Part shown: positions 3,453 to 41,693 of the stretch, piece after piece
How the letters are laid out: every line of letters begins with the position of its first letter
Numbering within the stretch: position 1 is the stretch's first letter
Assembly: GCA_043765195.1 (NCBI GenBank)
Contig: JAYUJN010000040.1
Span: 22,734-86,733 of the forward strand
Direction: 5' to 3'
Source of the DNA: Bacteroidota bacterium
GTDB taxonomy: Bacteria; Bacteroidota; Bacteroidia; UBA7662; JAYUJN01
DNA length: 64,000 nt
The notes under the pieces: model-generated
Told to the model about the DNA's origin: nothing
Databases searched by the model: none
The model's input: the letters and a program-made list of their open reading frames with translations, nothing else
Position numbers and translations under genes: made by a program

Positions 3453-4172
3453 ATGTCGTTAAAAAATACCATTTTAAAAAAACACGCCCAGCACCGCTAC
3501 CCACAGTATTTGTTTGGTAAGGCGGCGCAAGACATCGCCACAACGCACAAAACGCAGTTTAAATTGAGGGAAATAAAGATTTTAGATGCTCCCTGCGGCA
3601 CGGGCGAAACCACCTACCACCTGGCGCAGGTGAATGGCAGCACCGTAACGGGCATAGATGCGTGGGAGCCTTACTTGGCGCAGGCAAATAGCGATTTTGG
3701 GGCTGCACCCAATGTTTATTTTTATAAACAAGATATTTTTGAACACCTAAAAACTTTTGTTGGTTTTTATGACGTGATAAACATCATAAATTCGTTATTT
3801 TTGTTTAAAGAAGCCGAAAAACTCTTAATGATTGCAAAGAAAAGCCTGACTGAAAACGGAAAATTGGTGGTAATAATACCAAATACAGAAAGCCAGAATT
3901 TTTTGGACTTTCAAAAAAACGATGCCAACAAAACCAATAAATCTGTTTATACCCGAGAGCAAATTGTGGTTTTGTTTGAGAAGTGTGGCTTTGAAATCGC
4001 TCATTTACAAGGACTTGCCTATACCTCGCACGTGGTGGGTACGCCTTTTCAGCAAAAACTATCGATAGCAAAAGATTATTTTTTGCTGGTGAAAGATGCG
4101 CTACAAAAAACCAAAGGCACTCGCCCACCGAGTTATTGGTTGTTTGTGCTTACCCAAAACAATAAAAAATAA
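3453..4172 (+). CDS. class I SAM-dependent methyltransferase
   Basis: Motif I ILDAPCGTGETT followed by an acidic residue after beta-2 (TGIDAWE). No specific substrate is inferable. Confidence 0.7.
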   Translation: MSLKNTILKKHAQHRYPQYLFGKAAQDIATTHKTQFKLREIKILDAPCGTGETTYHLAQVNGSTVTGIDAWEPYLAQANSDFGAAPNVYFYKQDIFEHLKTFVGFYDVINIINSLFLFKEAEKLLMIAKKSLTENGKLVVIIPNTESQNFLDFQKNDANKTNKSVYTREQIVVLFEKCGFEIAHLQGLAYTSHVVGTPFQQKLSIAKDYFLLVKDALQKTKGTRPPSYWLFVLTQNNKK

Positions 4173-4290
4173 GCCTTAAATAAATGTTTTAAAGAGCCGC
4201 TACCCAACTTTTTGTTTTTTCTTCTCGTTTGGTATCATAACGAGTGCATACATATTTGTACCGTTAGGTTTTAAGGTTAGGTTAATGAGA

Positions 4291-4316
4291 AGCCCCACGC
4301 AGTGGGGCTTTTATGT
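4291..4316 (+). terminator. rho-independent terminator
   Basis: GC-rich hairpin agccccac-gc-agtggggct followed by a T-run. Lies 3' of the methyltransferase gene, within the conserved element 4247-4316. Confidence 0.6.
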
Positions 4317-4493
4317 TTTGGGAGTTTTATACGTTTTTTTGTTTGGGAAATAAAAAATATTTTGCGCCATTGTGGGAAAATGGCGTTTTTGGGTTGGTCG
4401 TTTGCAGCGGGAGAGACGCGATTAATTGCGTCTGTACGTAATTCGTTCGGAAAATTGCGTAGTCTGTGCGTTATTTTGGTGGAAATATGATAT

Positions 4494-4762
4494 GAGACAA
4501 GGCAGTGCCTTGTCTCTACAAATAACAACGACAATGTAGAGACAAGGCACTGCCTTGTCTCCGCAACCGTGCCTTGCCTCTACAAATAACAAAAAAAATA
4601 AACGAAATATCGTACAGACCTTGCAATGCAACGTCTGTACGGAATTATGGTAAAATGCAATGGCTGGCGTGAGACGTTCTAATAGAACGTCTCTACAATT
4701 TTGAAATAATAACAAAAAAAATAAACAAAATATCGTACAGACGTTGCAATGCAACGTCTGTG
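4494..4762. repeat. cluster of five 23-25 bp perfect palindromes with shared flanks
   Basis: Palindromes at 4494-4516 and 4539-4561 (gagacaaggca-N-tgccttgtctc), 4614-4638 and 4737-4761 (acagacgttgca-a-tgcaacgtctgt; the first copy has one mismatch), and 4671-4693 (gagacgttcta-a-tagaacgtctc). Each is followed by tacaa(a)taacaa. A ~65-bp direct repeat is also present (4580-4639 vs 4692-4762). Confidence 0.8.
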
Positions 4763-4893
4763 TGAAATTGTGATGGAAAATATTGCAACACTTCTGGCAA
4801 AATTATTGTTTATATGCCATGCCACCCAACCCTTGTAGGTATTCCCTCGTAATAAAAACAGAAAATAGCCTTATTACCGAACCTAACTAAACT

Positions 4894-5466
4894 TTGCAAA
4901 ACCCAACAGATGATATCATTTTAGGCTGCATTAACCAACAAAGACGTGCGCAAAACACACTCTACAACCAGTTTCACTCGGTTTTATTAAGTGTGTGCTA
5001 CCGCTATGTGCGCTCCGAAGACGAAGCTGTAGCCTTGATGAACTTGGGTTTTCTCAAAATTTTGAACAATATGGAACGCTACAATACCGAGCTATCGTTT
5101 GTGGCTTGGGCAAAAAGGATAGTGATAAACACAATAATAGACGAATTTCGCAAAAATAAAAACCACAGAGAGCAAATAAAATACCAAGAATTTGAGGATT
5201 TTCACGACTATGCTGGCTTGGTGGACTTTAATTTTGCGGACAAAAACATAGATGCGGAGCAAATTCACGGCTTTATAAACCAACTGCCAAACATAAGCAA
5301 ACAGGTGTTTAACCTAAGCGTGATAGACGGCTACACGCACATAGAAATAGGCAAAATGCTGGGCATTGCCGAAGGAACATCAAAATGGCACTTATCTTTT
5401 GCAAGGAAATTTTTAATAGAAAAAATAAATAAGTTAAACGATAACTTAAAAACAAAAACGGCATAA
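4894..5466 (+). CDS. RNA polymerase ECF-type sigma-70 factor
   Basis: Region 2 (YRYVRSEDEAVALMNLGFLKILNN...FVAWAKRIVINTIIDEFRK) and region 4 HTH (SKQVFNLSVIDGYTHIEIGKMLGIAEGTSK). Confidence 0.85.
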   Translation: MQNPTDDIILGCINQQRRAQNTLYNQFHSVLLSVCYRYVRSEDEAVALMNLGFLKILNNMERYNTELSFVAWAKRIVINTIIDEFRKNKNHREQIKYQEFEDFHDYAGLVDFNFADKNIDAEQIHGFINQLPNISKQVFNLSVIDGYTHIEIGKMLGIAEGTSKWHLSFARKFLIEKINKLNDNLKTKTA

Positions 5467-5470
5467 TACA

Positions 5471-6670
5471 ATGAATAATTTTGAAAATATAGACGACTTT
5501 TTGAGGCACAAACTAAGCCAAAGCCAGATTGAGCAAAAAGCCTGGCACTGGGAAGCCGCAGAAAAACTAATAGACAACCAAGAGCGAAAAAAACGCCTCG
5601 GCTGGTGGGTACTTACCGTAGCCCTACCCCTCATGCTCGCCCTGCCCCTACTCACGGGCAACAGCTACGCAAGCAAACAAACAGCACGCTACACCCAAAA
5701 CACAGCCAAACTAAGTGGCTTGGCGCAAGGTAAAATTTTGTACAAAGCACTAACCCAAAAATATAAAAACTCAAAAACACAAAACACAAATATCGTAGAA
5801 AGCGAAACAAAAGACCAATATTTGGGTTTAAATGGGGTAAAAACACCCAGCTTCGCCGAGGCATTTGCACAAAAAACGACTTTAAACAACCAAAACAACG
5901 CAACCACCAACGCCAACGATTTGGTAAATTTAGAGCGCAACGGGCTTTTAACCGCAATGAAAAAATTTGCCCCAAAAGCCATAGAAAACACCACCGAAAC
6001 AGCAAACATTGCCACGGCTACCTTGGCACAAAACACGCCCATTTTACCAAAAATAAATACCAGAAACTCAGCCATAAGCCACCAATTGCTGGCAGAAGTG
6101 GGCAGCAACTACTGGCGCAAAACACTGGCTATAAACGAAATAGACACCACCAACCGCCAACACATTGCGCCGCACATTGCCCTGAAATACAACCTAAAAA
6201 TAAACAAAATAATACTAAGCACGGGCGTGGGCTACACCACCCAAAGCCTGCACGAGCCTACCCAAACCGCCAACCAAACAAACTATGGCTTTGGTTTTAC
6301 GCAAAACAGCTACCAAATTAAAAATACGAAGCAGCACCAACTGACCATACCGATTTTGATAGGCTACGAAATACTGCCAAAACACCAAATTATGGCTGGT
6401 ATGAGTGTGCAAAAAACGCTGGTTTCGAAGTATGAAGTGGCGCAAAACCAGCTAAACAGCCTCGCTGGCTTGGGTAGCACCACCCAAACCAACGAATACC
6501 TAAGCACCAGCAGCCCGAGCATTGGCGCAAACAAAACCCAAATGGCGGGCATGGCACGCTACCAAGTGCAAGCCACGCAGCGTTTGGCGGCTTATATAGA
6601 GTACCAAAAATCGTTTGGAAAACCAACGCAAGCCATCGGCGGCGGCGTACAATTTTTTATAAACAAATAA
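5471..6670 (+). CDS. putative anti-sigma factor-like membrane protein with a C-terminal beta-barrel-like domain
   Basis: Starts 5 nt after the sigma-factor stop. A 40-aa N-terminal segment is followed by a single hydrophobic helix (LGWWVLTVALPLMLALPLL). The C-terminal ~170 aa show alternating-hydrophobic strands and end in FFINK, consistent with an outer-membrane barrel. Paralogous to 30548-32068. Confidence 0.4.
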   Translation: MNNFENIDDFLRHKLSQSQIEQKAWHWEAAEKLIDNQERKKRLGWWVLTVALPLMLALPLLTGNSYASKQTARYTQNTAKLSGLAQGKILYKALTQKYKNSKTQNTNIVESETKDQYLGLNGVKTPSFAEAFAQKTTLNNQNNATTNANDLVNLERNGLLTAMKKFAPKAIENTTETANIATATLAQNTPILPKINTRNSAISHQLLAEVGSNYWRKTLAINEIDTTNRQHIAPHIALKYNLKINKIILSTGVGYTTQSLHEPTQTANQTNYGFGFTQNSYQIKNTKQHQLTIPILIGYEILPKHQIMAGMSVQKTLVSKYEVAQNQLNSLAGLGSTTQTNEYLSTSSPSIGANKTQMAGMARYQVQATQRLAAYIEYQKSFGKPTQAIGGGVQFFINK

Positions 6671-11407: not shown

Positions 11408-11646
11408 TATAAATTGGTTGTTTTGTACTAAATAAAATCAAATAAAGGGCAAAAATAACCATTTTAGTAAAATACTTATACCCATTTTGTTTTTATTTTT
11501 AATTTATAAATAGAAATTTGTAACTTTGTAACGTTACACACGTTTTTTAAAAAAACAGTCCTTCAGCCCAAACATTTTCGCCATTTGGTTCGTTTTGGTT
11601 TTCAGAAACTTGGTTTTCGCAAAAAGCAATTTATCAAACACAAAGC

Positions 11647-13563
11647 ATGAAACAAATAAAAGCGGGAGAAATGCTCTCTACCATAAACGACCCCAAAGAC
11701 CTACGCAAGTTAGCACCCGAGCAGCTCACGCAAGTGTGTACCGAACTCAGGCAGTTTATCATCGATACCGTTTCCATCAATGGCGGGCATTTTGGGGCAA
11801 GTTTGGGCGTGGTAGAGCTTACTGTGGCACTGCACTACGCTTTTGATACGCCATACGACCAGCTCGTGTGGGACGTGGGGCATCAGGCTTACGGGCATAA
11901 AATCCTCACCGAGCGGCGCAATATTTTTCATACCAATCGGTTTTACGGCGGACTTAGCGGCTTTCCCAAGCGCAGCGAAAGTGCCTACGATACCTTTGGT
12001 GTGGGGCATAGCTCTACCTCCATTTCGGCGGCGTTGGGCATGGCAGTAGCCAGCAGGCTAAAAGGCGAAAACGACCGCCAGCACATCGCAATCATCGGCG
12101 ACGGCGCTATGACAGCGGGCATGGCTTTTGAAGCAATGAACCACGCAGGCATCGAAAACTCCAATATTTTGGTGATTTTAAACGACAATTGCATGAGCAT
12201 AGACCCCAACGTGGGCGCACTCAAAGCATACCTCACCGACATTACCACTTCGCCCACCTACAACAAACTCAAAGACGAAATTTGGACTACACTGGGCGGC
12301 TTGGGTAAATTGGGTAAAAAAGCCCAAAAATTAGCCTCCAAACTCGAGCAGGGCGTAAAATCTGCGGTGCTTCAAAAAGGAAATTTGTTCGAATCGCTGA
12401 AATTTAGGTATTTCGGACCCATAGACGGACACGATGTAAACCACCTCGTGGAAGTGCTAAACGACCTAAAAAATATACCTGGTCCCAAACTTTTGCATTG
12501 CGTAACGGTAAAAGGCAAGGGATTTTCGCTCGCAGAACAAGACCAAACCCTGTGGCACGCACCAGGGTTGTTTGACAAAGTAACGGGCGAAATTTACAAA
12601 AAAACACACGATACACCCCAAGCACCCAAATACCAAGATGTGTTCGGGCATACCATTGTAGAGCTTGCCGAAAAAGACCCACGCATTGTGGGCATCACGC
12701 CTGCCATGCCCTCGGGCTGCTCGCTGAACATTATGATGAAAGCCATGCCGCACCGAGCATTTGATGTGGGCATAGCCGAGCAACACGCCGCTACCTTTGC
12801 CGCAGGGCTGGCTACGCAGGGCATGGTGCCGTTTTGCAACATTTATTCGTCGTTTATGCAGCGTGCCTACGACCAAGTAGTACACGACATTGCCCTACAA
12901 AACCTACCCGTAATACTGTGCTTGGATAGAGGCGGGCTGGCTGGTGCCGACGGACCTACGCACCACGGAAACTTCGACTTTGCGTACTTCCGCTGCATAC
13001 CAAATATGGTGGTGAGCGCACCCATGAACGAACAAGAACTGCGCAACCTCATGTACACCGCCACGCTGCACGGGGCACCGTTTAGCATCAGATACCCACG
13101 GGGCGAGGGCGTGATGCCGCAATGGCGCACACCGCTCGAGCTTATAAAAGTAGGCACGGGGCGCAAAATTAAAGATGGCAACGACATAGCCATTTTGACC
13201 ATAGGCACGGCGGGCAACTTAGCCACAAAAGCCATAGCAGAGCTACAAAAATCGGGCTACGACCCAGCACACTACGATATGCGTTTTGTAAAACCACTGG
13301 ACGAAGCCATGCTCCACGAGGTTTTTTCCAATTACCAAAAAGTAATAACCATAGAAGATGCAAGCATCGTAGGCGGTTTTGGTAGCGCCATTGTGGAGTT
13401 TGCAGCCGCAAACCAATACCACGCCAGCATAAAACTACTGGGTATCCCCGACCTATTTATAGAACACGGCACGCCCGATGAGCTTTATAAAGAATGTGGA
13501 TTTGACCCAAACAGCATCGCAGAAGCCGTAAAATCAATGGTAAACGAACCAGTGCTGGCTTAG
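11647..13563 (+). CDS. dxs: 1-deoxy-D-xylulose-5-phosphate synthase
   Basis: TPP-binding motif GDGAMTAGMAFEAMNHAG and a GHxxxxxS/VGH transketolase-like N-terminus (LVWDVGHQAYGHKILT). Length of 638 aa is typical. Confidence 0.95.
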   Translation: MKQIKAGEMLSTINDPKDLRKLAPEQLTQVCTELRQFIIDTVSINGGHFGASLGVVELTVALHYAFDTPYDQLVWDVGHQAYGHKILTERRNIFHTNRFYGGLSGFPKRSESAYDTFGVGHSSTSISAALGMAVASRLKGENDRQHIAIIGDGAMTAGMAFEAMNHAGIENSNILVILNDNCMSIDPNVGALKAYLTDITTSPTYNKLKDEIWTTLGGLGKLGKKAQKLASKLEQGVKSAVLQKGNLFESLKFRYFGPIDGHDVNHLVEVLNDLKNIPGPKLLHCVTVKGKGFSLAEQDQTLWHAPGLFDKVTGEIYKKTHDTPQAPKYQDVFGHTIVELAEKDPRIVGITPAMPSGCSLNIMMKAMPHRAFDVGIAEQHAATFAAGLATQGMVPFCNIYSSFMQRAYDQVVHDIALQNLPVILCLDRGGLAGADGPTHHGNFDFAYFRCIPNMVVSAPMNEQELRNLMYTATLHGAPFSIRYPRGEGVMPQWRTPLELIKVGTGRKIKDGNDIAILTIGTAGNLATKAIAELQKSGYDPAHYDMRFVKPLDEAMLHEVFSNYQKVITIEDASIVGGFGSAIVEFAAANQYHASIKLLGIPDLFIEHGTPDELYKECGFDPNSIAEAVKSMVNEPVLA

Positions 13564-26221: not shown

Positions 26222-27490
26222 ATGACCCACAAGCAGGAACTTTTCAAAAACTACCTAATCAAAAAAATTGGCTTCATTGAGGACACTTTTTTGAATAAGT
26301 ATATTCCGCTTCTTGAAGCGGCTAGCCCTAAACTTAAACTCTTAGGTAAACAGAAAAAAGTGTGGAGTGAAGATAGACAAAGATATTTGCCAGAAAAAGA
26401 AGACAGTCACAATACATACATTGAAAAAGAAAATTATTTCATACCTGAAAAATTCAATGTTATAGACCTCCTGAACATTGAACTTAACACTAAAAAAAGT
26501 AACGACTACACGTCAAAAGATTTAAATCTAAAATTTATTTCAGCGACTGACATATCAAACTTTACATACTGCCCAGTGAGTTTTGCAATCTCTAAAACTT
26601 TTGAATTGCCAAAACTCGAATCAGCAATTTTGGGAACATCACAACATGAAAAACAAATATTAATTAGGTGTTTGCGACCTTCTATAGCAAATGAATATAT
26701 TTCGTTCCATGATGCGATGATGACGGACTTCACTAGATTTGAAAATCCATTTTCACTCCATTCAGTTTTAAACGATGAAAATAAATTATTTTTTGACGAA
26801 CTAAGCGAATCATCAGTCATTTTCTATGGACACCACAATAACGAAACTAAAAACAAATATTTTAAAAGCACCAATGGAGGTTTTGTTGGGCAACCTGACT
26901 ATATTTTTAAAAACGATACCACAAACGATATTTTTGTGGTAGAAGAAAAATTCCAATTCGTGCCTAAAGACCCGTCAAATTTTTATTATAGCTCTTATTC
27001 TGAGGAGGAAGAAAAAAAAATTATAGAAAAAAGAACAAGGAAGTCTTTTTTCAACAATCATATTAATCAATTAAGCTCATATATTTACGGCATTGGAGAA
27101 TATGACATTAGGTATGGCTACCTGGTTTATTGGAAATATGAACTTGATAATAAAAATCCAAATATTGTCGGATGTGACGTTTTACGAATAGAAAAAACTG
27201 AAAACGGAAGGAAACAAATTAGAGATATATTTATCAGTCTTAAAAAATTGATAACAGATAAAAGTGGAGTTTTTGACATAGATAAACGAGTTCCAGCTAA
27301 GTGTGCAAATTGTGTTTCAAATCTTCTTTGCGGACATAAAACAGGAAGATTTACTGCTTTTAGCGTACCATATTCAAAGGACTACTTGAAAATATATTTT
27401 GCTCCATTTCCAGAGGGACTTAAAAAAGAAGTTCTGCCGACAGAATCAAACTCAACATCTGCACAAACACCAACTGACAGCCCACCATAA
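26222..27490 (+). CDS. Cas4/RecB-like PD-(D/E)xK nuclease with a predicted 4Fe-4S cluster (DUF83-type)
   Basis: Motif order matches Cas4/AddB nuclease domains: an N-proximal Cys (NFTYCPVSF), motif II D (GQPDYIF), motif III ExK (VVEEKF), a QhxxY motif (NQLSSYIYG) and C-terminal C-x2-C-x5-C (CANCVSNLLC). AT-rich codon usage unlike the flanking genes. Confidence 0.6.
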   Translation: MTHKQELFKNYLIKKIGFIEDTFLNKYIPLLEAASPKLKLLGKQKKVWSEDRQRYLPEKEDSHNTYIEKENYFIPEKFNVIDLLNIELNTKKSNDYTSKDLNLKFISATDISNFTYCPVSFAISKTFELPKLESAILGTSQHEKQILIRCLRPSIANEYISFHDAMMTDFTRFENPFSLHSVLNDENKLFFDELSESSVIFYGHHNNETKNKYFKSTNGGFVGQPDYIFKNDTTNDIFVVEEKFQFVPKDPSNFYYSSYSEEEEKKIIEKRTRKSFFNNHINQLSSYIYGIGEYDIRYGYLVYWKYELDNKNPNIVGCDVLRIEKTENGRKQIRDIFISLKKLITDKSGVFDIDKRVPAKCANCVSNLLCGHKTGRFTAFSVPYSKDYLKIYFAPFPEGLKKEVLPTESNSTSAQTPTDSPP

Positions 27491-27611
27491 CGGCATAAAA
27501 TAGACGGTTTTGCAACAGTGCTGCTAACGAAAGTCATTAAACATTAATACATCTATTCCCCTTCTTCGCAAATACCCAAAACATTGATGCCAACCTTAAA
27601 ACAACAACACG

Positions 27612-28619
27612 ATGGATAAAAAACGACCAATAGACAAAAAAAGAGAATCTGGTGGATACACTGATATTGGAACTCTTGAAGACGGCGCCATTGTAGAAAT
27701 GAAAGAAATAGCTGGAAGATTTTTGATTATCAAAGAACGTTCAATATATGAAATGATTTTTGCGGACAAAATAGACCCAGCAAGAACGAATATAAATTTA
27801 CCCAATACAATTCACAAACTCATTATAGATAAGGGGACAGAGTCTGAATTAGTTGCAAGGACTTTATTAACAGCAAAGACAGTTTTTAAAAAAGAATACT
27901 TAAACGATAGAATAAACTGCAATTCCGTTTTGAGTCTATGTGTTGATTTGCTGTCAGAACTTTCACTATTAGAAAAAGAAATAAAAGAATACTTAGACGA
28001 AGAAAATAAAGTATCGCTTGAATACGAAAAAAGAAGAAATGAAAAAGTTTCTTTCCAACTTCCTGCTATCATAAATTTGGAATCAAGGTGTAAAACTATT
28101 TATCAAAAAACTGACCACATTGAACAAACCCTAATGGAGATAATAACTTATTTTTATCCTAACAAACAATTGACAAAACAATCCCATTTCCCAAAGTTTC
28201 ACGAAGTATTAAAGGTAAAATATGGAGAAAATGACGGTTTTTCAAAGTTTATTGGTAAGAAAGCTTGTTTTATGAGAGTTATTAGAGAATTAAGAAATGG
28301 ACTTGACCATAGGCTTGCAACATACAAAGTTACAGATTTTGAATTAAAACCTGACGGCGATATTCTTTCACCTACAATTGAACTTAATCACAAAGACGTG
28401 AAAGTTGAACGAATATCACTTAGTGAATTTCTAAGAATTACATCCAGTAATTTAATTGAAATTATTGAAGTAACTTTTGCGTTTCTTGCAGGACGTGCTG
28501 TAAAAACGACAGGAATGCCTTACCAACTCAGGGAAATTCCAAAAGAAAAAAGACGACACAAATTTGTAAGATTTTGTTTTTGGATGCCAATTGGTGTTGA
28601 AGGATATTATTGTCAATAA
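27612..28619 (+). CDS. hypothetical protein with a HEPN-like Rx4H motif
   Basis: No family recognised. Contains RELRNGLDHR, which fits the HEPN Rx4-6H RNase motif, in a predicted helical context. AT-rich. Confidence 0.3.
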   Translation: MDKKRPIDKKRESGGYTDIGTLEDGAIVEMKEIAGRFLIIKERSIYEMIFADKIDPARTNINLPNTIHKLIIDKGTESELVARTLLTAKTVFKKEYLNDRINCNSVLSLCVDLLSELSLLEKEIKEYLDEENKVSLEYEKRRNEKVSFQLPAIINLESRCKTIYQKTDHIEQTLMEIITYFYPNKQLTKQSHFPKFHEVLKVKYGENDGFSKFIGKKACFMRVIRELRNGLDHRLATYKVTDFELKPDGDILSPTIELNHKDVKVERISLSEFLRITSSNLIEIIEVTFAFLAGRAVKTTGMPYQLREIPKEKRRHKFVRFCFWMPIGVEGYYCQ

Positions 28620-28796
28620 ATAAAGGCTACCACCAACATCAAACCATTGCAAACTATGCGTAATATTGAGTTTGGTGTTATTTTGGGCTTGTTATAAGGC
28701 GCTTTGAGCTGGGGCAAGTTTATGTATCACTCCAAAAACACGCACTATAATTGAAACGAAAAATCATAAATTTGCAACCATATTCAACCAAATAAA

Positions 28797-29669
28797 ATGA
28801 GCAAGAAATTAATACGATTTGATTGGGCTATAAAACGACTTTTAAGAAACAAAGCTAATTTCGTTGTTTTAGAAGGCTTTTTGAGCGAACTGTTGTTTGA
28901 TAACATTAAAATTGAGCAAATTTTAGAAAGTGAAAGCAACCAAGAAACAGACGATGACAAATTTAATCGTGTGGATATTTTAACTCAAAATTCAAAGAAT
29001 GAACTCATCATTATTGAAATTCAAAGCAGTTACGAAATTGATTATTTCCACAGAATGGCTTACGGTGTTTCAAAAAGTATTACTGAAAACCATAAATTAG
29101 GCAGTAAATACAAAGAAATCAAAAAAGTAATTTCTGTAAACATCGTTTACTTTGACCTCGGACAGGGACAAGACTACATTTACAGGGGAAAAACAAACTT
29201 TATTGGACTTCACCAAAAAGACTTGTTGGCATTATCTGATAAGCAAAAAAGTACGTTTATAAAAGAAAACGTATCTGATATTTTTCCAGAATTTTATTTG
29301 TTGAAAGTTAATCAATTCAACGACGTTGCAAAAGACACTTTGGACGAGTGGATTTACTTTTTGAAAAACAGCGAAGTAAAAGATGATTTTAAAGCCAAAG
29401 GACTCAAAGAAGCAGGCGAAGTATTGGATATTATGCGACTTGAAAAACAAGACGTATATGGCTACAATCGTTATATGGATAGTTTGAGTTTGAAAGCCAG
29501 TGAAATTTTTACTTTACAAACTGAGGCAGAGTTTAAAGCAATGGATGCGAGGAGTATTGAAATTGCTGAAAATGGAATTATTGAGGGTTTTGACAACTTG
29601 ACAATTGGTAAAATGACAAAATTGTCAATAGAAAAAATTGAAGAATTACGAATTAAACTAAACAAATAA
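28797..29669 (+). CDS. Rpn/YhgA-family PD-(D/E)xK recombination-promoting nuclease (putative transposase)
   Basis: N-terminal FDWAIKRLL...FLSELL matches the TIGR01784-type FDYAFKxLF start. It has a D...E-I-Q/K core (RVDILTQNSKNELIIIEIQ) and a C-terminal repeated KLSIEKIEEL-like helix. Confidence 0.7.
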   Translation: MSKKLIRFDWAIKRLLRNKANFVVLEGFLSELLFDNIKIEQILESESNQETDDDKFNRVDILTQNSKNELIIIEIQSSYEIDYFHRMAYGVSKSITENHKLGSKYKEIKKVISVNIVYFDLGQGQDYIYRGKTNFIGLHQKDLLALSDKQKSTFIKENVSDIFPEFYLLKVNQFNDVAKDTLDEWIYFLKNSEVKDDFKAKGLKEAGEVLDIMRLEKQDVYGYNRYMDSLSLKASEIFTLQTEAEFKAMDARSIEIAENGIIEGFDNLTIGKMTKLSIEKIEELRIKLNK

Positions 29670-30310: not shown

Positions 30311-30392
30311 GCTTTTTTTTAAATGGTAGTTGCAATTTTTGTACCAAAACACAAAGTTAAAGTTATTTGGGCAAAATATGCTTTAAAAAATA

Positions 30393-30418
30393 AAACCCCG
30401 CTGTCGCAGCGGGGTTTT
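30393..30418 (-). terminator. rho-independent terminator (minus strand)
   Basis: Hairpin aaaaccccgctg-tcgc-agcggggtttt. On the minus strand it is followed by a T-run. It sits 3' of the anti-sigma-like gene, within the second copy of the conserved element (30384-30466). Confidence 0.6.
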
Positions 30419-30547
30419 CCATTAACCTAACCTTAAAACCTAACTGTACAAATAAAGTATGTACCGTATGCTTATTAGACGCTTAACAACGCCCACAAGT
30501 TGGGTAAAAAACAAAGTTTAACACCGAATGAGCGTTTTTTATTTTTC

Positions 30548-32068
30548 TTAACGCAACCTGTATTTTACATATACTTGCACATCGGTATTTCTATAAAAAA
30601 CATTGCTGTTAAAGTAAGAGCCGTCGTACATATTCCTAAAACTTTTTGCGAACCGAACGCCCGTAGCCAGGCTCTGGCTTTGCCTAATTTCGTAGCTCGC
30701 CAAAAGCTGAAAATTAACTTTTTGCAGGTATTCGTTTTGGGCATCGTACTGAACATTCAATATTTTAGCCGTTTGCGTGGGCAATGTAATATTGCCGCCT
30801 GCATCTATATCTATGGTATCCGTGGCTGTAACCATGCGGCTACCAAACAGATACGAGGCTTTTATGCCCGCTTGCGCCGCCGATTTTGCGGTAACCTGAT
30901 AGCTCACCACCAACGGCACTTCTATAAAGTGCATTTTATCTACGGCGAACGTGTTTTTTACGGCTCTATAATTGCTCGGGTTCGAGTTTACCTGCATTAT
31001 TTCGGCTCTATAAAGGCTTTTTGGGCTTATATTTTTATACTCGATGCCCGTTTCTAAGCCCAGTTTTGGGCTAATGTCCCCGCCCAAAAAAGCACCAAAG
31101 CTCGGCGACAGCGAGGCTTCGTATTTCTTGGTATTGTAATTGTAAGCGGCGTTATAAACCGCAGCAGCCCTCACCCCAAAATAAATATTCGGGTTCAATT
31201 TTATGCCTTTTTTAGGCATTGTTGGGCTTTGCAGTTGCTCTATTTTAACCCTCGGGGTTTCCATTGCCGCAAATGTATTTTTTATTGGTTCTTCTACTGC
31301 TGCTATCTGGCTTTGGTTTGTATTTACGCTTTTATCAGTGAGCATATCGGTATTATTTTTCACTAAACCATTTGTTTTCAAGTCGTTGTGTGCTGCATTT
31401 GGGTCGTTTGTGCGCCGTGTTTCACTTACATCGTTGGCTGCTAAGTAGCCGTTTTCGGCCTGGCTATGGCGTAAAACTTTGGAATTATCTACCATTTTAC
31501 CCGAAATAGCTTGGGCGTACAGCTCCGTTTTAGCGGTATTTGAGTTTGCAATACTCGGCTTCGCCACGTTGCTTTTCGGGGCATTTGGTTTGCGTATATC
31601 CAACAAATCGTACCTTTTGGCTTGGGAGGCAAACAGCGATTTTTTGTGTACATTGGGTGCGTACCCAAAGCAAAACAAAACGGCAAATGCGGTAAGTATG
31701 TACTTTTTTAGCGAGCGCATGGTCAGCGCCTTGGGCATTTCGGGCATAAACGCCGCATCGAGCAGTTGGCTCATTTGATGCCACGCTTTTTCGGTGGGTT
31801 CGTGGTGCAGGTTGCTCAGTTTTACGTAAATAGCGTTGTTTTGCTGGTCTATTTTATCGTTCATGTTTTGCCAATGCGTTTGGGGCATCGGGTGCTGTAC
31901 CTCGCTTATTTTATTGGGCATGGTTTGCTCAAAAAACAAGGGTTCGGGCTGGTAGCTTTTATCCAAAATGGCATTCATCTTCTGCCAATTTTGCTCGGTT
32001 GCATCGGCATTTTGTGCCTCAATTTTAGACTGTAAAAGCTCCGCAAATATTTTTTCTTGGTTGTTCAT
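30548..32068 (-). CDS. putative anti-sigma factor-like membrane protein with a C-terminal beta-barrel-like domain
   Basis: Begins MNNQEK. It starts within 3 nt of the upstream ECF sigma stop (the ORF-track frame, open to 32143, would overlap sigma by ~70 nt). Has repeated WxxM motifs and a single TM helix (ILTAFAVLFCFGY). The C-terminal ~200 aa show beta-strand periodicity. Paralogue of 5471-6670. Confidence 0.4.
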   Translation of the reverse strand: MNNQEKIFAELLQSKIEAQNADATEQNWQKMNAILDKSYQPEPLFFEQTMPNKISEVQHPMPQTHWQNMNDKIDQQNNAIYVKLSNLHHEPTEKAWHQMSQLLDAAFMPEMPKALTMRSLKKYILTAFAVLFCFGYAPNVHKKSLFASQAKRYDLLDIRKPNAPKSNVAKPSIANSNTAKTELYAQAISGKMVDNSKVLRHSQAENGYLAANDVSETRRTNDPNAAHNDLKTNGLVKNNTDMLTDKSVNTNQSQIAAVEEPIKNTFAAMETPRVKIEQLQSPTMPKKGIKLNPNIYFGVRAAAVYNAAYNYNTKKYEASLSPSFGAFLGGDISPKLGLETGIEYKNISPKSLYRAEIMQVNSNPSNYRAVKNTFAVDKMHFIEVPLVVSYQVTAKSAAQAGIKASYLFGSRMVTATDTIDIDAGGNITLPTQTAKILNVQYDAQNEYLQKVNFQLLASYEIRQSQSLATGVRFAKSFRNMYDGSYFNSNVFYRNTDVQVYVKYRLR

Positions 32069-32070
32069 TT

Positions 32071-32637
32071 TTAGGCAAATAGTTCGGCTAAATGTGGTTG
32101 TGCGATGGCGATAAACTGGTTTTTGGCATTGCACAAATGCCATTTCGAGGTATTTTCGCTGATTTGTAGCGTTTGCGCTATTTCTTTGTGCGAATATCCA
32201 TCTATCAAAAACATAGAGAACACCGTGCGGCTGGCGGGCGATATTTTCTGAATTATTTTATTAATCATCTCGCCGTGCATACTGTTTAGCACGTTGTTAT
32301 ACACTTCTCCGTCGTAGTCTATTTGGTTGTCGCTCAGTGCAATGTTGGCTTTATAGCTCTTATTTTGGCGAATAAAATCCAGTGCGGTGCGGAACATAAT
32401 GCGCTTTATCCAGCCCTCGAACGACCCCGTAAACTCATACAAGGCTACTTTGTTAAATACTTTTAGAAATCCGTCGTTGAGTATTTGCATTGTATCGTCT
32501 TCGTTGCAGGTGTAGCGTGCGCAAAGGCTAAACATGGTGCTATAATATTTTTCATATAGGCTGCGCTGCGCCACACGGTCGCCTTTGGAGCAACCTGCGA
32601 TGAGCAGTTCGTCGCTGGTTTTTTTGGTGTATTCCAT
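32071..32637 (-). CDS. RNA polymerase ECF-type sigma-70 factor
   Basis: Region 2 (FSLCARYTCNEDDTMQILNDGFLKVFNK...FEGWIKRIMFRTALDFIRQ) and region 4 HTH (SRTVFSMFLIDGYSHKEIAQTLQISENTSK). Confidence 0.85.
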   Translation of the reverse strand: MEYTKKTSDELLIAGCSKGDRVAQRSLYEKYYSTMFSLCARYTCNEDDTMQILNDGFLKVFNKVALYEFTGSFEGWIKRIMFRTALDFIRQNKSYKANIALSDNQIDYDGEVYNNVLNSMHGEMINKIIQKISPASRTVFSMFLIDGYSHKEIAQTLQISENTSKWHLCNAKNQFIAIAQPHLAELFA

Positions 32638-33082
32638 ACAAATATACTTAAGGTTGGTTATTGCTATAAACGCCACAAAAACGAATAAAGTTGGGTGGTA
32701 AAATTAGGGGTAATGATTGGTACAGATTGTAGTTTTAAACACAAAACAGATACTTAACTCTTAAAACATGATTTTGATGGCTATTTCGCTGTATCTTTTT
32801 TTTAGAAAAACGAACCCTCACCCAAAAATCGCTTATTTTGCCCTCGTAACGGGCGACTTACGCCTGTGCAAATGTAGTCAAACTAAAATTATTTTTTGCA
32901 CAAGGTACAAAGAAAAATTCGGATACCGTTGTATTTATGACCATTCTTGTTTAATTTTGCCTTACAACAATCAGGGCAAACTACCTCTAAAATTTGTGGC
33001 ATACAGCCCAAAAATACGCATTCATTACCACTTTTCGCCGTCGCACACGCTACTCCACAACCAAATAACAAATTACAAAACA

Positions 33083-33664
33083 ATGAACAGAGAAAACATA
33101 CAAAATTACGTGCAGGCAACGATACAAATGCCAAGCGAAAAAGCAAAACTGCTGGCAGATAAATTTGAGTTTTTTGAACTTCAAAAAAATGAAATATTTA
33201 TAGCCGAAAATAAAATTTCTAAAAATACCTACATTTTAGAAAGCGGATTTATCCGCTCATTTACAATGGACAACGAAGGCAATGAGGTAACGACCAATAT
33301 TTATTCGCCTTTTTGTTTTATCAATGATGTAATGGCATTTTTCAAACAACAGCCCGCTACCGAGAGTTTTCAAGCCCTCACGCCCTGCAAACTTTGGGCG
33401 ATGAGCTATGAAGAAGTACAAGCAAATTTTCACGGGATACCTGAATTTAGGGAGTTTGGGCGAATGATGCTCATAACTAACTATGCCAACTTGAAAGACC
33501 GAATGTTGGGAATGATAAAAGATACTGCCGAAAATCGTTACTTGAAACTGATGAAAAATCACCCAGATATTTTCCAAAATGTTCCGCTGAAAATTATCGC
33601 TTCTTACCTTGGTATTACCGACACTTCTTTGAGCAGAATTAGAAAAGAAATTTTAAGCAAATAG
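33083..33664 (+). CDS. Crp/Fnr family transcriptional regulator
   Basis: N-terminal cNMP-binding beta-roll (FELQKNEIFIAENKISKNTYILESGFIRSF) and C-terminal HTH (LKIIASYLGITDTSLSRIRKEI). The start was reassigned to the internal Met at 33083; the upstream part of the ORF-track entry lacks coding character. Confidence 0.75.
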   Translation: MNRENIQNYVQATIQMPSEKAKLLADKFEFFELQKNEIFIAENKISKNTYILESGFIRSFTMDNEGNEVTTNIYSPFCFINDVMAFFKQQPATESFQALTPCKLWAMSYEEVQANFHGIPEFREFGRMMLITNYANLKDRMLGMIKDTAENRYLKLMKNHPDIFQNVPLKIIASYLGITDTSLSRIRKEILSK

Positions 33665-33776: not shown

Positions 33777-36146
33777 ATGGTACACAAAACACTCGTTACT
33801 TCCCTTTTGCTTTTTGCATCAATTACTGCATTTAGCCAAAACATTACGCAAACCATCAGAGGCACTGTAATTGACAAAGAAAGCAAAGCTCCACTCGGTT
33901 TTTCATCTGTGGTTTTGCTCAATTCAAATCCAATTATTGGAGCTTTAACCGATACCTTGGGCAATTTTACTTTACCAAACATCGCCATTGGCAGGCAAAG
34001 TATTCAAGTAAGTTATCAGGGCTATAAAACGGCTGTGGTTTCAGATATTCAGCTGAGTGCAGGCAAAGAAATTGTGCTTCAAATTGAGTTGGAAGAAAAC
34101 GCCATAAGTTTAAATGCTGTAACAATAACCGCAGGAAACACCAAAGACAGAACCGTGAATGACATGATTGGCATTAGCGGTAGGACTTTTAGTGTGAGCG
34201 AAGCCAACCGTTTTGCGGGCAGCCAAAACGACCCTTCTCGCATGGCACGCAACTATGCGGGTGTGTCGGGCTCAAGCGACCAACGAAACGACATAATTAT
34301 TAGGGGCAACTCGCCACAAGGTTTGCTTTGGCGGATTGAGGGCATTCCTGTTCCTAACCCCAATCACTTTGCGGGGCAAGGCAGTACAGGCGGTCCAATC
34401 AGCATCATTAATTACAAATTACTCTCCAATTCTGATTTTATTACGGGTGCTTTCCCCGCAGAATATGGCAATGCCACATCGGGCGTTTTTGACATAAAAA
34501 TGAGAAACGGCAACAACAAACGCTCGGAACGCACCCTTCAACTCGGAGCTTTGGGCATAGAGGCTATTGTGGAAGGACCTTTTAGCAAAAAAAGCAATTC
34601 CAGCTATTTGGTCGCCTATCGCTACTCTACACTTTCTTTGCTGACTTCACTTAATCTAAAAATCGGCTTTGCGTCCATTCCTTCTTACCAAGATTTATCG
34701 TTCAAATTTAATTTTGTAACCCAAAAAGCAGGCACGTTCAAACTATTTGGATTGGGCGGCGTGAGCAGCACCGATTTTTTGGATAGCAAACGTGATACTA
34801 CGCAATTTTCGCCAGCCAACAAGGGAGAAAATCTGCGTTTTGGCTCCAAAACAGGTATTTTGGGTTTGAGCCACACCTATTTTTTAGACAATACCACCTT
34901 TATAAAAACTACTATTGCCACCACTTACGAAGGCAACGCAAGCAAAAGAGATAGCATTTTAGCCGATGGAAACACCAAATCAACAGGCGGTTTTGGTTAT
35001 GATAACTACAAATTTGTGCTAAGTTCTTACCTCAACAAAAAAATTAACGCCAAGCATACCATTCAAACAGGAATAATACTTGAAAATATCCATTACCAAA
35101 CAAAAGACAGTTTGCTGTTATACAAACCTGTTTCAGGCGAGCAGTTTTGGGGTTATAACAACGATTTTGGTGGCACTACAAACTTAATTCAGGCTTATGG
35201 TCAGTGGAAATACAGCATAAATGAACAAATCACGCTCAACTCGGGCTTGCATTTTCAGTACCTGACGCTTAACAATAAGTTTGCCGTAGAGCCACGGGTT
35301 GCCCTCAATTATCAGGTAGCAGAAAACCAAAGATTGAGCATTGGCTACGGATTGCACAATCAGGTGCAGCCTTACGCCATGTATTTTTACAAAGATAGAT
35401 TTAGTAGCCAAACCGAAACCAATAAAAATTTGGGTTTTACTCGTAGCAATCAAATTATTGCGGGGTATGATGTGAATTTAAAAAACGATTTTAGGATAAA
35501 AACCGAAGTCTATTATCAATATTTATCCAACGTACCAGTTGAAAAAGACTCGTCGTCTTATTCAGTAATGAACTACGGAGCAACGTTCAACAATACCTAC
35601 AAACCCAATTTGGTAAACAATGGCGTTGGGCAAAATTATGGTATAGAACTGACTTTGGAGAAATTTTTTAGTAACAACTATTACTTTTTACTCACCACTT
35701 CTCTATTCAACTCCAAATACAAAGGGAGCGACGGCATAGAGCGAAACACCGCATTCAACGGTAATTATGTGGTAAACGCTTTGGGCGGATATGAGCTAAA
35801 ATTGAAAAAGAACCTCGCTATTTTGTTTGATGCAAAAATGACTTTTGCGGGTGGATTGCGTTACACACCAATAGATATAAATGCCTCTATCCAAAACCAA
35901 GAGGCAAATTATAAAGATAATGCAGCATTTTCGCTACAAAATGCACCTTATTTTAAACCCGATGCAAAAATCACCGTCCGAAAAGACTTCAAAAATAAAG
36001 TGGCTTTGGAGTTTGCGTTGGACATACAAAATGTAGTGGGTTATCAAAATGTTTTTGTAAAACTATACGACAAAAATACAAAAACAGAACGCACCGCTTA
36101 CCAAAACGGGAGATTTCCAACGGTACAATTAAAATTAGAATTTTAA
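33777..36146 (+). CDS. TonB-dependent receptor with an N-terminal carboxypeptidase-regulatory-like domain
   Basis: Signal peptide and a CarbopepD_reg-like beta-sandwich (IRGTVIDKESKAPLGFSSVVLL). Has a plug domain with a TonB box region and a 22-strand barrel, with a C-terminal aromatic residue (LKLEF). Confidence 0.85.
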   Translation: MVHKTLVTSLLLFASITAFSQNITQTIRGTVIDKESKAPLGFSSVVLLNSNPIIGALTDTLGNFTLPNIAIGRQSIQVSYQGYKTAVVSDIQLSAGKEIVLQIELEENAISLNAVTITAGNTKDRTVNDMIGISGRTFSVSEANRFAGSQNDPSRMARNYAGVSGSSDQRNDIIIRGNSPQGLLWRIEGIPVPNPNHFAGQGSTGGPISIINYKLLSNSDFITGAFPAEYGNATSGVFDIKMRNGNNKRSERTLQLGALGIEAIVEGPFSKKSNSSYLVAYRYSTLSLLTSLNLKIGFASIPSYQDLSFKFNFVTQKAGTFKLFGLGGVSSTDFLDSKRDTTQFSPANKGENLRFGSKTGILGLSHTYFLDNTTFIKTTIATTYEGNASKRDSILADGNTKSTGGFGYDNYKFVLSSYLNKKINAKHTIQTGIILENIHYQTKDSLLLYKPVSGEQFWGYNNDFGGTTNLIQAYGQWKYSINEQITLNSGLHFQYLTLNNKFAVEPRVALNYQVAENQRLSIGYGLHNQVQPYAMYFYKDRFSSQTETNKNLGFTRSNQIIAGYDVNLKNDFRIKTEVYYQYLSNVPVEKDSSSYSVMNYGATFNNTYKPNLVNNGVGQNYGIELTLEKFFSNNYYFLLTTSLFNSKYKGSDGIERNTAFNGNYVVNALGGYELKLKKNLAILFDAKMTFAGGLRYTPIDINASIQNQEANYKDNAAFSLQNAPYFKPDAKITVRKDFKNKVALEFALDIQNVVGYQNVFVKLYDKNTKTERTAYQNGRFPTVQLKLEF

Positions 36147-40995: not shown

Positions 40996-41028
40996 GCCGC
41001 TGCCCCTTCGGGGCAGCGGCTTTTTTTT
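40996..41028 (+). terminator. rho-independent terminator
   Basis: Perfect 11-bp GC-rich stem gccgctgcccc-ttcg-ggggcagcggc followed by T8. Confidence 0.7.
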
Positions 41029-41183
41029 GTTTGAGCGGTTTTATTGTCTTTTTATTTGAGCGGTTTTGTTATCTTTTTTATTTGAGGGGCTTTTATTGTC
41101 TTTTTGTTTGATGGGTTTTGTTGTCTTTTTGTTTGAGAGGTTTTATTCTCTTTTTGTTTGATGGGTTTTGTTTTATTCCCCTT
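41029..41183. repeat. tandem repeat, ~26-bp unit x6
   Basis: Six consecutive units of tttgagNggttttRttgtctttttR lying between the terminator and the ytxJ promoter region. Confidence 0.75.
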
Positions 41184-41312
41184 CCCTCCCCTTTATTTTT
41201 GCGTAATACGCACACACAAAACTTTTCGGAACATTTTTTCGTTTGTATCATAGTACGAAGTGCGCCGTACTTATTTTTTGAGCATCGCACTTCCAACCTT
41301 AATTAACCTGTA

Positions 41313-41693
41313 ATGTTTTCAAAATTATTTTCTGCACCCAAAGCAGACAGCCTGGCGTGGAACTCACTTAGCTCCGAAGCCCAACTCAACAACATATTCG
41401 CAGCCTCTTTTGAAGTGCCGCAACTCATATTTAAGCACAGCACACGCTGCTCCATCAGCACCATGGCGCTCAACCGTTTGGAGCGAGACTGGACATTTGA
41501 CCACGAAATCTTAGTGCCACACTACTTAGATTTACTCGATTTTAGAGCCATTTCCGACAAAGTAACCCAAATGTTTGGCGTAACGCACGAGTCGCCGCAG
41601 GCTTTGGTTATAGACCAAGGCAAGTGCGTTTTTCATGCCGAACACAACCTCATTGGCGTAAAAACCATCAGCGAGTTTTTACAGAACAATTAG
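41313..41693 (+). CDS. ytxJ: bacillithiol-system-type monothiol redox protein YtxJ (DUF2847)
   Basis: 126 aa thioredoxin-like protein with a single active-site Cys in the TRCSIS (TxxC-like) motif, typical of YtxJ. Confidence 0.7.
   Translation: MFSKLFSAPKADSLAWNSLSSEAQLNNIFAASFEVPQLIFKHSTRCSISTMALNRLERDWTFDHEILVPHYLDLLDFRAISDKVTQMFGVTHESPQALVIDQGKCVFHAEHNLIGVKTISEFLQNN

Follow-up and report, generated by a model that had tools for sequence, protein, structure and literature searches.

A probable small RNA gene pair in an uncultured Bacteroidota genome

We analyzed 64,000 nucleotides (nt) of DNA from a Bacteroidota bacterium (assembly GCA_043765195.1, contig JAYUJN010000040.1, positions 22,734 to 86,733; hereafter the window), in which a short element is present in two inverted copies. 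On balance, we lean towards the explanation that these copies are paralogous genes for trans-acting small RNAs (sRNAs) that resemble FopS of Bacteroides thetaiotaomicron, are driven by an extracytoplasmic function (ECF) sigma factor, and possibly feed back on the regulon to which they belong; the conclusion that they are a pair of sRNA genes is probably right. The repeat, the terminators, the distribution of promoter motifs, the predicted folds, the homologue, and the complementarity described below were computed directly.

The invariant part of the element is a 25-nt core, GTTAGGTTTTAAGGTTAGGTTAATG, that is identical at 4263-4287 on the forward strand and 30444-30420 on the reverse strand:

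4263-4287, forward strand: core and putative seed of copy 1 (GUUAGGUUUUAAGGUUAGGUUAAUG), G/U-rich, predicted to be unpaired or weakly paired
30420-30444, reverse strand: core and putative seed of copy 2, assigned by its identity with copy 1 and by the predicted fold

An earlier, sequence-only reading of this DNA had described an identical 24-nt core; the sequences that it quoted are present to within 2-3 nt of the positions it gave, and the identity in fact spans 25 nt. The exact 24-mer GTTAGGTTTTAAGGTTAGGTTAAT has two sites only (4263-4286, forward; 30421-30444, reverse), and no third core site with up to 3 mismatches was found in the window, nor any in 100 shuffles. No inverted repeat in the window is longer than the one formed by the segments 4253-4296 and 30411-30454 (44 nt, 91% identity), and 34 of 35 positions are identical between the copies over TATTTGTAC-N-GTTAGGTTTTAAGGTTAGGTTAATG, from TATTTGTAC to AATG. 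Weaker likeness runs about 60 nt further upstream (TACCCAACTT ... CGT), outside the interval first described. The copies thus share islands of identity, namely a -35 (TACCCAACTT), a -10 (CGT), and ATTTGTAC-N-core (34/35), while the spacers, the interior of the leader, and the sequence of the terminator have diverged and the structure of the terminator is kept. A covariance model built from both copies, which scores them at 105.7 and 95.4 bits, revealed no third copy in the whole window; its next matches were the opposite strand of copy 2's own terminator hairpin (24.0 bits) and a match of 16.9 bits.

Two inward-pointing, inverted copies 26.1 kb apart, with a PD-(D/E)XK transposase-family gene (28797-29669) between them, could also be a repeat that acts as DNA: the ends of a mobile or invertible 26-kb segment, a miniature inverted-repeat transposable element, or a binding site for a DNA-binding protein. 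We consider this very improbable, given that the likeness has no sharp outer boundary and continues outward as promoter-like islands, that no terminal inverted repeats or target duplications are seen within a copy, that the core is not palindromic, and that the segment carries ordinary housekeeping genes. The same arrangement, with no inversion, was also present in every assembly covering a junction (n = 3 for copy 2, from different samples; n = 2 for copy 1).

Terminators and predicted RNA folds

Each copy ends in a GC-rich hairpin followed by a T-run, as is characteristic of an intrinsic (Rho-independent) terminator, and is predicted to begin, in its long isoform, with a short stem-loop:

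4288-4319, forward strand: intrinsic terminator of copy 1, stem of 11 pairs at 4288-4312 and then a T-run (terminator scan and fold)
30385-30418, reverse strand: intrinsic terminator of copy 2, stem of 12 pairs at 30418-30392 and then a T-run (terminator scan)
4235-4262, forward strand: 5' leader of the long isoform of copy 1, predicted stem-loop UAACG.AGUGC/GUACCGUUA
30445-30472, reverse strand: 5' leader of the long isoform of copy 2, predicted stem-loop GUACA/UGUAC

As had been pointed out, the two hairpins differ in sequence yet remain paired: all 10 aligned stem pairs are kept, 7 of them invariant, 1 with a one-sided change, and 2 with two-sided changes (G-C/A-U and A-U/G-C). The sequence-only reading had taken this covariation as its argument for a structured RNA, and here it did not hold up. 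Since 109 of 500 shuffles do equally well, with only two sequences to compare, the two compensatory pairs are without significance; the stem is that of a generic terminator, which accounts for the covariation but not for the core or the promoter motifs. RNAalifold run on the three homologues returned a positive covariation term that is uninformative owing to indels in the hairpins. Nor is the core the structured part, as the invariant 24-25 nt are predicted to be single-stranded. The analysis nonetheless supports the earlier conclusion of a functional RNA gene as opposed to a chance repeat; it was the argument for it that proved weak and in part wrong.

The predicted fold of 4235-4320 consists of a 5' hairpin, 21 unpaired nt, and the terminator (z = -3.65), and the long form of copy 2 follows the same order, with a 5' stem-loop, about 20 unpaired core nt, and the terminator (z = -2.77). 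In the short forms (58 and 63 nt), the core is predicted to be at most weakly paired and is followed by the terminator.

As also stated earlier, both copies lie 3' of a gene on the same strand (a methyltransferase gene, 3453-4172, for copy 1; an anti-sigma gene, 32068-30548, for copy 2). No other terminator stands between gene and copy, and the copy 2 hairpin is the sole terminator after the operon of that anti-sigma and its sigma factor (sigma-2). Downstream, a second terminator-like hairpin (4364-4386) comes after the copy 1 terminator, and the DUF4230 gene 3' of the copy 2 terminator has its own perfect TAACTTTG -7 box. Because such separate signals follow each terminator, the elements appear to be separate units that also end the upstream genes. 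This arrangement would fit a duplicated 3'-end module as well, that is, a 3' untranslated region (UTR) with its terminator and no role in trans, in which the core serves as a signal for stability or processing in cis or as a protein site: both copies trail a same-strand gene and provide its first terminator, and one FopS member is derived from a 3' UTR (PMC11697453). We judge such a module improbable. The two upstream genes are unrelated, homologues of the element occur in other contexts (on contigs L015 and L056/L075/L083, described below), and the complementarity to co-regulated leaders would be left unexplained. Moreover, between the stop codon and the core each copy has signals that resemble promoters, one an ECF-type -35/-10 and the other a -7 box of the Bacteroidota kind, and the elements are not simply pieces of 3' UTR.

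An ATG at the end of the core, at the same place in both copies, opens frames of 19-22 codons (MRSPTQWGFYVLG... and MENPAATAGFYFLK...) that both end in AAATAA, and these could encode a leader peptide or attenuator for the downstream genes. However, the frame runs through the hairpin and the T-run, and therefore the terminated transcript has no stop codon. The CCCC/GGGG(Y)TTTTAT of the terminator dictates the residues that the two frames share (P..GFY), no alternative antiterminator pairing is evident, and the downstream genes have promoters of their own; such a role has, in our estimate, only a very slight probability.

Promoter motifs shared with two ECF sigma genes

Signals resembling two types of promoter were found upstream of the core:

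4202-4230, forward strand: ECF-type promoter of copy 1, -35 ACCCAACTT (4202-4210), N15, -10 CGTTT (4226-4230); predicted start at about 4234-4237
30477-30505, reverse strand: ECF-type promoter of copy 2, ACCCAACTT (30505-30497) and CGTCT (30481-30477); predicted start at about 30473-30471
4228-4258, forward strand: housekeeping (sigma-A/ABfr-type) promoter-like signals of copy 1, -33 TTTG (4228-4231), N19, cATATTTG (4251-4258); predicted start at G4263
30449-30456, reverse strand: TtTATTTG of copy 2, resembling a -7 box and placed 4 nt before the core, with no good -33

The decamer TACCCAACTT is identical at 10 of 10 positions between the copies amid diverged sequence, and CGT follows 15 nt on. 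Many ECF promoters have AAC and CGT separated by 16-17 nt, and autoregulation is usual among ECF sigma genes. Scanning both strands of the window (128 kb) for ACCCAAC-N17-CGT gave exactly 4 matches (0.19 expected; 0 of 100 shuffles reach 4), which are copy 1 (4202-4228), copy 2 (30505-30479), and sites upstream of two ECF sigma genes, sigma-1 (4824-4850) and sigma-2 (32696-32670), with 43 nt and 32 nt from motif to start, respectively. Apart from the two elements, this motif in the window precedes only the two ECF sigma genes, so that the elements have what is expected of an ECF-sigma-dependent sRNA, a promoter like that of the cognate sigma gene. A second pattern, AACTT-N15-CGTYT, also has exactly 4 matches in the window, one at each element, one at sigma-2, and one 69 nt upstream of a brxC-like gene. 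The protein-coding units with such motifs are as follows:

4824-6670, forward strand: sigma-1 module, promoter ACCCAACCC-N15-CGTAA (4824-4852), AACCTAAC (4880-4887), sigma gene (4894-5466), Dma-like anti-sigma gene (5471-6670)
30548-32696, reverse strand: sigma-2 module, promoter ACCCAACTT-N15-CGTTT (32696-32668), CCAACCTTAA (32657-32648), sigma gene (32637-32071), Dma-like anti-sigma gene (32068-30548)
41216-41693, forward strand: brxC-like unit, promoter variant ACAAAACTT-N15-CGTTT (41216-41244), CCAACCTTAA (41293-41302), gene (41313-41693; PF11009)

The regions upstream of the cores are co-linear with the sigma-2 promoter and 5' UTR as far as ATATTTGTA, at a spacing of 23-24 nt, and ATATTTGTA adjoins the start codon in sigma-2 and the core in the elements. 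From this co-linearity, a duplication of the sigma promoter and leader suggests itself as the origin of the sRNA genes. The leader of the brxC-like gene opens after CGT with CGTTTGTATCATAGTACGAAGTGC, which is nearly the CGTTTGGTATCATAACGAGTGC of copy 1. Among homologues of the sigma factors (42-48% identity), the upstream regions contained ACAAC-N17-CGTC (L101, L102), ACCCAAC-N18-CGTC (L118), or ACCCAAC-N18-GTCT (L114).

Compared with the Bacteroidota promoter consensus (TAnnTTTG at -7, TTTG at -33; PMC7366714), cATATTTG and TtTATTTG each agree at 7 of 8 positions and lie at a FopS-like distance from the first G; a -33 TTTG (at N19) is present only in copy 1. Because both types of signal are present, we predict for each gene two possible starts (about 4235/30472 for the ECF-type promoter; 4263/30444 for the -7 box), of which one or both might be used. 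Transcription from the ECF-type promoter (ACCCAACTT-N15-CGT) would give an RNA of about 85-90 nt, composed of a short 5' stem-loop, about 20 unpaired nt of invariant core, and the terminator hairpin, and a start at the housekeeping-type -7 box, 4 nt before the core, would give one of about 55-60 nt, both forms ending at the intrinsic terminator.

Two further features of the window concern these motifs. CCCAAAC-N17-CGTTT is present at 11567-11595, 52 nt upstream of the DXP synthase gene (11647-13563), which may be chance, and 5-6 tandem copies of a 25-27-nt unit, TTTTTGTTTGAGCGGTTTTATTGTC, occupy 41024-41177, directly upstream of the ECF-type promoter of the brxC-like gene.

Predicted pairing of the core with leaders of putatively co-regulated genes

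To our knowledge, Bacteroidota are without Hfq and ProQ and without Shine-Dalgarno-based initiation. In B. thetaiotaomicron, GibS and FopS repress translation by pairing next to the start codon (PMC11697453, PMC7366714). By analogy, the core would be a seed that pairs with C/A-rich stretches (CCAACCUUAA, AACCUAAC; also UUAAGGUUGG) just upstream of start codons and would thereby block translation initiation. The 10-mer CCAACCTTAA, complementary to UUAAGGUU.GG, has three sites in the window (0.24 expected), all of them on the sense strand and 11-13 nt before a start codon, namely that of sigma-2, of gene 27612, and of the brxC-like gene; the leader of sigma-1 contains an 8-mer complement, AACCTAAC. 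Perfect complements of at least 8 nt number 43, of which 5 fall at -40 to -1 of genes (0.6 expected). All three protein-coding units with an ECF-type motif are among these 5 genes, as is the case for 0.05% of composition-matched seed shuffles (p ~5e-4), and no leader was matched by a reversed-seed control. The complementarity statistics are post hoc and use our own gene starts, and are suggestive. When duplexes were predicted for 45 start regions, gene 27612 ranked first (-19.4 kcal/mol), sigma-1 second (-18.8 kcal/mol), and sigma-2 seventh. Repression of susC-like mRNAs is a trait of FopS; the only TonB-dependent receptor gene of the window (33777-36146) ranked tenth (-13.6 kcal/mol) and is not a strong predicted target. 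The best site is as follows:

27590-27602, forward strand: best predicted pairing site, CCAACCTTAAAAC, an exact 10-mer match, ending 10 nt before the ATG of the 335-aa gene 27612-28619

Since the promoter is the sigma factor's own, the RNA would be made when the anti-sigma releases the sigma factor upon an envelope or oxidative signal. The best complements in the window are those of both sigma leaders and of the brxC-like leader behind the same promoter, and the RNA would therefore damp or time-limit the regulon, in a loop that would be either negative feedback or incoherent feed-forward.

AGGUU is present three times in the core, and the repeats, in a stretch predicted to be unpaired, might instead bind an RNA recognition motif-type protein such as RbpB, the RNA acting mainly as a sponge or ligand rather than by base pairing. 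FopS contains AAGGUU twice, and RbpB binds the single-stranded 5' part of FopS; in that case, however, the binding modulates base pairing and does not replace it (PMC11697453). The enrichment of exact complements before start codons also favors pairing, and we find a role mainly as sponge or ligand decidedly improbable.

The gene for a cNMP-binding-domain protein (32768-33664), divergent from sigma-2, has an 8-nt complement of the core immediately before its assumed start codon.

Homologues in metagenomes and strain variants

A scan for a 20-mer of the core in 185,579 reference genomes (596 Gb) gave 3 matches, none of which shows the anatomy of the element: the one in Methanobacteriaceae is apparently coding sequence, the one in Haloplasma has all 24 core bases but overlaps a different hairpin, and the one in Salinivirgaceae has 22 of 24 core bases and is cut by a contig end. 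The host genome was not among the matches of the core scan of GTDB reference genomes. An 18-mer scan of JGI metagenomes returned 91 matches, most of them eukaryotic telomere-like or satellite repeats, of which only those on L015, on L056/L075/L083, and perhaps on L024 and L066/L069 appear bacterial and sRNA-like. The core gave 0 matches in IMG/VR, and BLAST searches against phages and plasmids gave chance matches only, among them one of 21 nt where two genes meet in a Parabacteroides phage.

The clear homologue is on contig L015 (JGI Ga0099364_10108438), which is from another organism and another context, with recO-like and rdgB-like neighbors as judged by reading the translations alone. This unit consists of AAC-N16-CGTC, a 5' hairpin of unrelated sequence, TAGGTTTTAAGGTTAGGTTA (20/20 identical), the AGAAGC that copy 1 also has, and an equally spaced terminator. 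The model built from the two copies gives it 30 bits, and the predicted order of hairpin, unpaired core, and terminator is common to both copies and to L015. L056, L075, and L083 share the 19-20 nt at the 5' end behind a perfect TAACTTTG and 2 nt, with a terminator about 35 nt later. With these units, the one on L015, and the probable distant kinship with FopS described below, the possibility raised at the outset that no homologues exist did not materialize.

L056 (570-690), L075 (2720-2590, reverse strand), and L083 (970-730, reverse strand) are related contigs with a putative sRNA gene that has a 5' AGGTTTTAAGGTTAGGTTA and a variable 35-nt middle, and L056 has a second, weaker unit at 1876-1806. 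On L015, two sRNA-like units are seen in tandem at 2340-2100 (reverse strand), each behind the same ATTAAACCTTTTT box that is followed 16-17 nt on by CGTC or GTCT.

DNA of the window is also found on ENA metagenome contigs from several samples. In three strain variants of copy 2, a small count, the RNA body of about 85 nt (the leader up to the last position of the terminator stem) is free of substitutions, and the flanks vary; one variant has an additional T in the T-run. The -35 and CGT are kept, with changes in the spacer, just after CGT, and downstream. A change just before the -35, T to C, gives CACCCAAC as at the sigma genes.

Comparison with FopS, GibS, and other sRNAs

A scan of Rfam had been suggested as a check on the element; no family matched at its gathering threshold across the whole window. 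At relaxed thresholds, copy 1 (22.2 bits) and copy 2 (22.6 bits) both matched FopS (RF04319) over model positions 16-71 only, below the gathering score of 56 bits; genuine FopS genes score 75.4 and 77.8 bits. The alignment of both copies runs through UUAG.U.UUAAGGUUA and the terminator. FopS, of about 70 nt in total, has a single-stranded 5' stretch and directly after it a Rho-independent terminator; likewise, in the short and long isoforms predicted here, the terminator follows an unpaired or weakly paired core. The R1/R1' seed at the 5' end of FopS (GUGUUUUUCAUAGUAUUAGAU in the fetched copies) was not found, only UUAG.U and the UUAAGGUUA after it being shared, and the first ~15 nt of FopS are without counterpart.

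FopS was reconstructed from published oligonucleotides, and 8 genuine copies (L106-L113) were fetched from IMG/VR; their layout is TTTG-N19-TAcCTTTG-cagt-GTGTTTTTCATAGTATTAGATTTAAGGTTAACAAAGGTTGGAG, followed by the terminator. The first L015 unit has TTTTCATAG in common with FopS and the core in common with the window elements. L015 links the two, because its first unit carries a FopS-like UUUUCAUAG 5' end together with this core. The second L015 unit, immediately after the first, scores 29.5 bits with the Rfam FopS model and has a FopS-like 5' end (GTTTTTTCATAGGTA). A conserved box, ATTAAACCATGTTATAAA, was also seen about 55-60 nt upstream of the -7 box in every fetched FopS copy; it opens like the L015 box (ATTAAACC), several of the copies lie very near the end of the fetched stretch, and the box may be a regulator site or an element boundary.

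FopS and GibS of B. thetaiotaomicron (PMC11697453, PMC7366714) are, like the present elements, multi-copy short RNAs of the same phylum, with a -7 box (here an imperfect one), 4 nt, and G(+1), and with pairing next to the start codon that is demonstrated there and proposed here. FopS also has the UUAG.U(U)UUAAGGUUA block and the repeated AGGUU. Unlike in FopS, the R1' seed GUGUUUUUCAUAGUAUUAGAU is largely absent here, the core continuing with GGUUAAUG rather than with the ACAAAGGUUGG of FopS; where sigma-ABfr promoters are reported for FopS, the present elements have a promoter of the ECF type and a 5' hairpin; and the host lies outside the Bacteroidaceae, the nearest named relatives of a neighboring protein being Cytophagales. 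The element probably works like FopS and GibS and is probably a distant relative of them, and by the Rfam criterion it is not a member of the FopS family. It differs from that type in its promoter motif, of the ECF (Das/Dma) kind, and in the feedback predicted for sigma mRNAs.

The most serious rival explanation is that of a FopS-type pair transcribed from the housekeeping -7 box only (about 55-60 nt), with ACCCAACTT-N15-CGT a dead relic of a duplication of the sigma-2 promoter and leader and with targets elsewhere, for example outer-membrane transporters, as FopS has. Exactly 4 nt separate the boxes from the core G, which is also the distance in genuine FopS; the -33 TTTG of copy 1 is at the canonical N19; FopS genes are reported with canonical sigma-ABfr promoters (PMC11697453); and L056, L075, and L083 have the same 5' sequence behind a perfect TAACTTTG with no ECF motif. 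We nevertheless consider it unlikely, in view of a -35 decamer that is fully conserved amid divergence and is kept or becomes more consensus-like in strain variants. L015, in addition, has the ECF-like AAC-N16-CGTC and no TTTG box, each -7 box in the window is one position off consensus and that of copy 2 is without a -33, and ATATTTGTA is also found at the sigma-2 start codon, where a promoter role is impossible.

Enterobacterial sRNAs of the ECF sigma-E response (MicA, RybB, and MicL) are similar in having a promoter for a stress sigma factor and feedback on that response, and MicL resembles copy 2 in lying at the 3' end of a gene with its own sigma-dependent promoter. They differ in having no sequence relation, in belonging to another phylum, and in their targets, which here are predicted to be sigma mRNAs and a redoxin-like gene and not abundant porins.

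Sigma/anti-sigma modules, neighbors, and host

Copy 1 has the methyltransferase gene upstream and the sigma-1 gene 580 nt on, and copy 2 comes directly after the sigma-2/anti-sigma pair and before the DUF4230 gene. Both sigma proteins (188-190 aa; 38% identical to each other) have Pfam Sigma70_r2, r4_2, and ECF matches and are the sole ECF sigmas in the window. OMP_b-brl_2 scored 30.6 bits for a 531-aa open reading frame (ORF), 32143-30548, that extends into the sigma gene (our gene call, 32068-30548, has 506 aa). For the 399-aa anti-sigma of the sigma-1 module it scored 22 bits and so fell short of the cut-off (27); hydrophobic helices are visible in the translations of the anti-sigmas. In each module, then, an ECF sigma with regions 2 and 4 precedes an anti-sigma that combines a transmembrane helix with an outer-membrane beta-barrel at its C terminus, and homologous operons elsewhere share this architecture. 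Das sigma factors with Dma anti-sigmas belong to ECF21 and are restricted to Bacteroidota, and a short N-terminal region, a helix, and a barrel are the defining Dma architecture, reported only in Bacteroidota (PMC10927553). We would accordingly place the modules in ECF21 on the basis of that report and not of a group model: as in Das/Dma systems, including EcfO/Reo of B. fragilis, the partner encoded after the sigma gene has a short N-terminal region and a single hydrophobic helix ahead of an OMP_b-brl_2 barrel at the C terminus (PMC10927553). They differ in the sRNA, as no sRNA report for the Das1, Das2, or EcfO regulons was found in the literature examined.

In the dCas12f-sigmaE system of RNA-guided transcription, a nuclease-dead Cas12f is operonic with a C-terminally extended sigma and there is no anti-sigma (PMC13472631). 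We rejected this system as a candidate, as the sigmas here have no extension, each has an anti-sigma, and the neighboring ORFs contain no Cas12f/TnpB domain.

The host is an uncultured Bacteroidota bacterium with few close relatives, as judged from its proteins. The nearest relative of sigma-2 is 86% identical, and its 1.9-kb contig breaks off within the anti-sigma gene; the next nearest has 48% identity. The sigma homologues are labeled Bacteroidia or Bacteroidota. DUF4230 homologues of 42-45% identity are from Arcicella, Runella, Emticicia, Dyadobacter, and Siphonobacter (Cytophagales), and a DUF4230 relative of 63% identity has another neighbor and no element. A search for relatives of the methyltransferase found none.

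Elsewhere, several repeats are present in the 570 nt that separate copy 1 from the sigma-1 promoter (4360-4890): an inverted repeat of 27 nt, perfect, (4494-4520 / 4535-4561) whose arms are themselves hairpins, a 65-nt direct repeat of 91% identity (4585-4649 / 4708-4772), and recurring GAGAC...GTCTC-TACAAATAACAA units that give spurious Rfam miRNA matches at relaxed thresholds. At 26222-29669, two neighboring ORFs (422 and 335 aa), neither of them matched by Pfam, are followed by the PD-(D/E)XK transposase-family (PDDEXK_2) gene. A 2502-aa ORF at 56326-63834 (reverse strand), with about 17 diverged repeats of ~350 nt and larger repeats of ~790 nt, looks like a giant repetitive surface protein.

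Weight and meaning of the proposed sRNA arm

Several points weigh against paralogous, ECF-driven, FopS-like sRNAs. Transcription, RNA ends, and sigma dependence are predictions made entirely in silico, and RNA production, dependence on the sigma factor, pairing with leaders, and the direction of regulation are inferences. The promoter and target motifs were found after inspection of the data, which makes the p-values post hoc, and the gene starts used in counting motifs and targets were our own ORF calls. The duplex energies are modest, with sigma-2 only seventh of 45. Two copies and one clear homologue are too few to test covariation, and the 22-bit FopS score is no better than terminator-driven matches to unrelated families. 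No copy of the promoter-core-terminator anatomy was found by exact-word scans in the 596 Gb of reference genomes, and the family is therefore rare or fast-evolving. Among 8 homologous operons, 2 (L103, L119) are without the upstream motif, and no orphan unit of ECF motif and terminator was found near 7 homologous sigma loci of other genomes. Finally, the ECF21 match rests on the Dma-type partner and the upstream regions of homologues, and not on the published EcfO motif.

In its minimal form, as an ordinary unannotated sRNA pair, the finding would have value for annotation and hold no surprise. Tentatively, and with more doubt than confidence, we propose a wider reading in which Dma/Das (ECF21-type) modules of some Bacteroidota have an RNA arm: FopS-like sRNAs that the sigma factor's own promoter would express, that appear to descend from a duplicate of this promoter and its leader, and that would pair with the leaders of the sigma gene and its regulon. 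If true, this arm would be the Bacteroidota counterpart of the sigma-E/sRNA circuit, in a compact locus that joins an ECF sigma promoter, an sRNA, and complementary sites in sigma mRNAs. Which regulator induces FopS under membrane stress is, according to PMC11697453, not known, and the arm would be a candidate for the control of FopS-type sRNAs in response to stress. Beyond gut Bacteroides, the RNA regulation of Bacteroidota is little explored, and FopS-like sRNAs would then extend to an environmental lineage far from the Bacteroidaceae.

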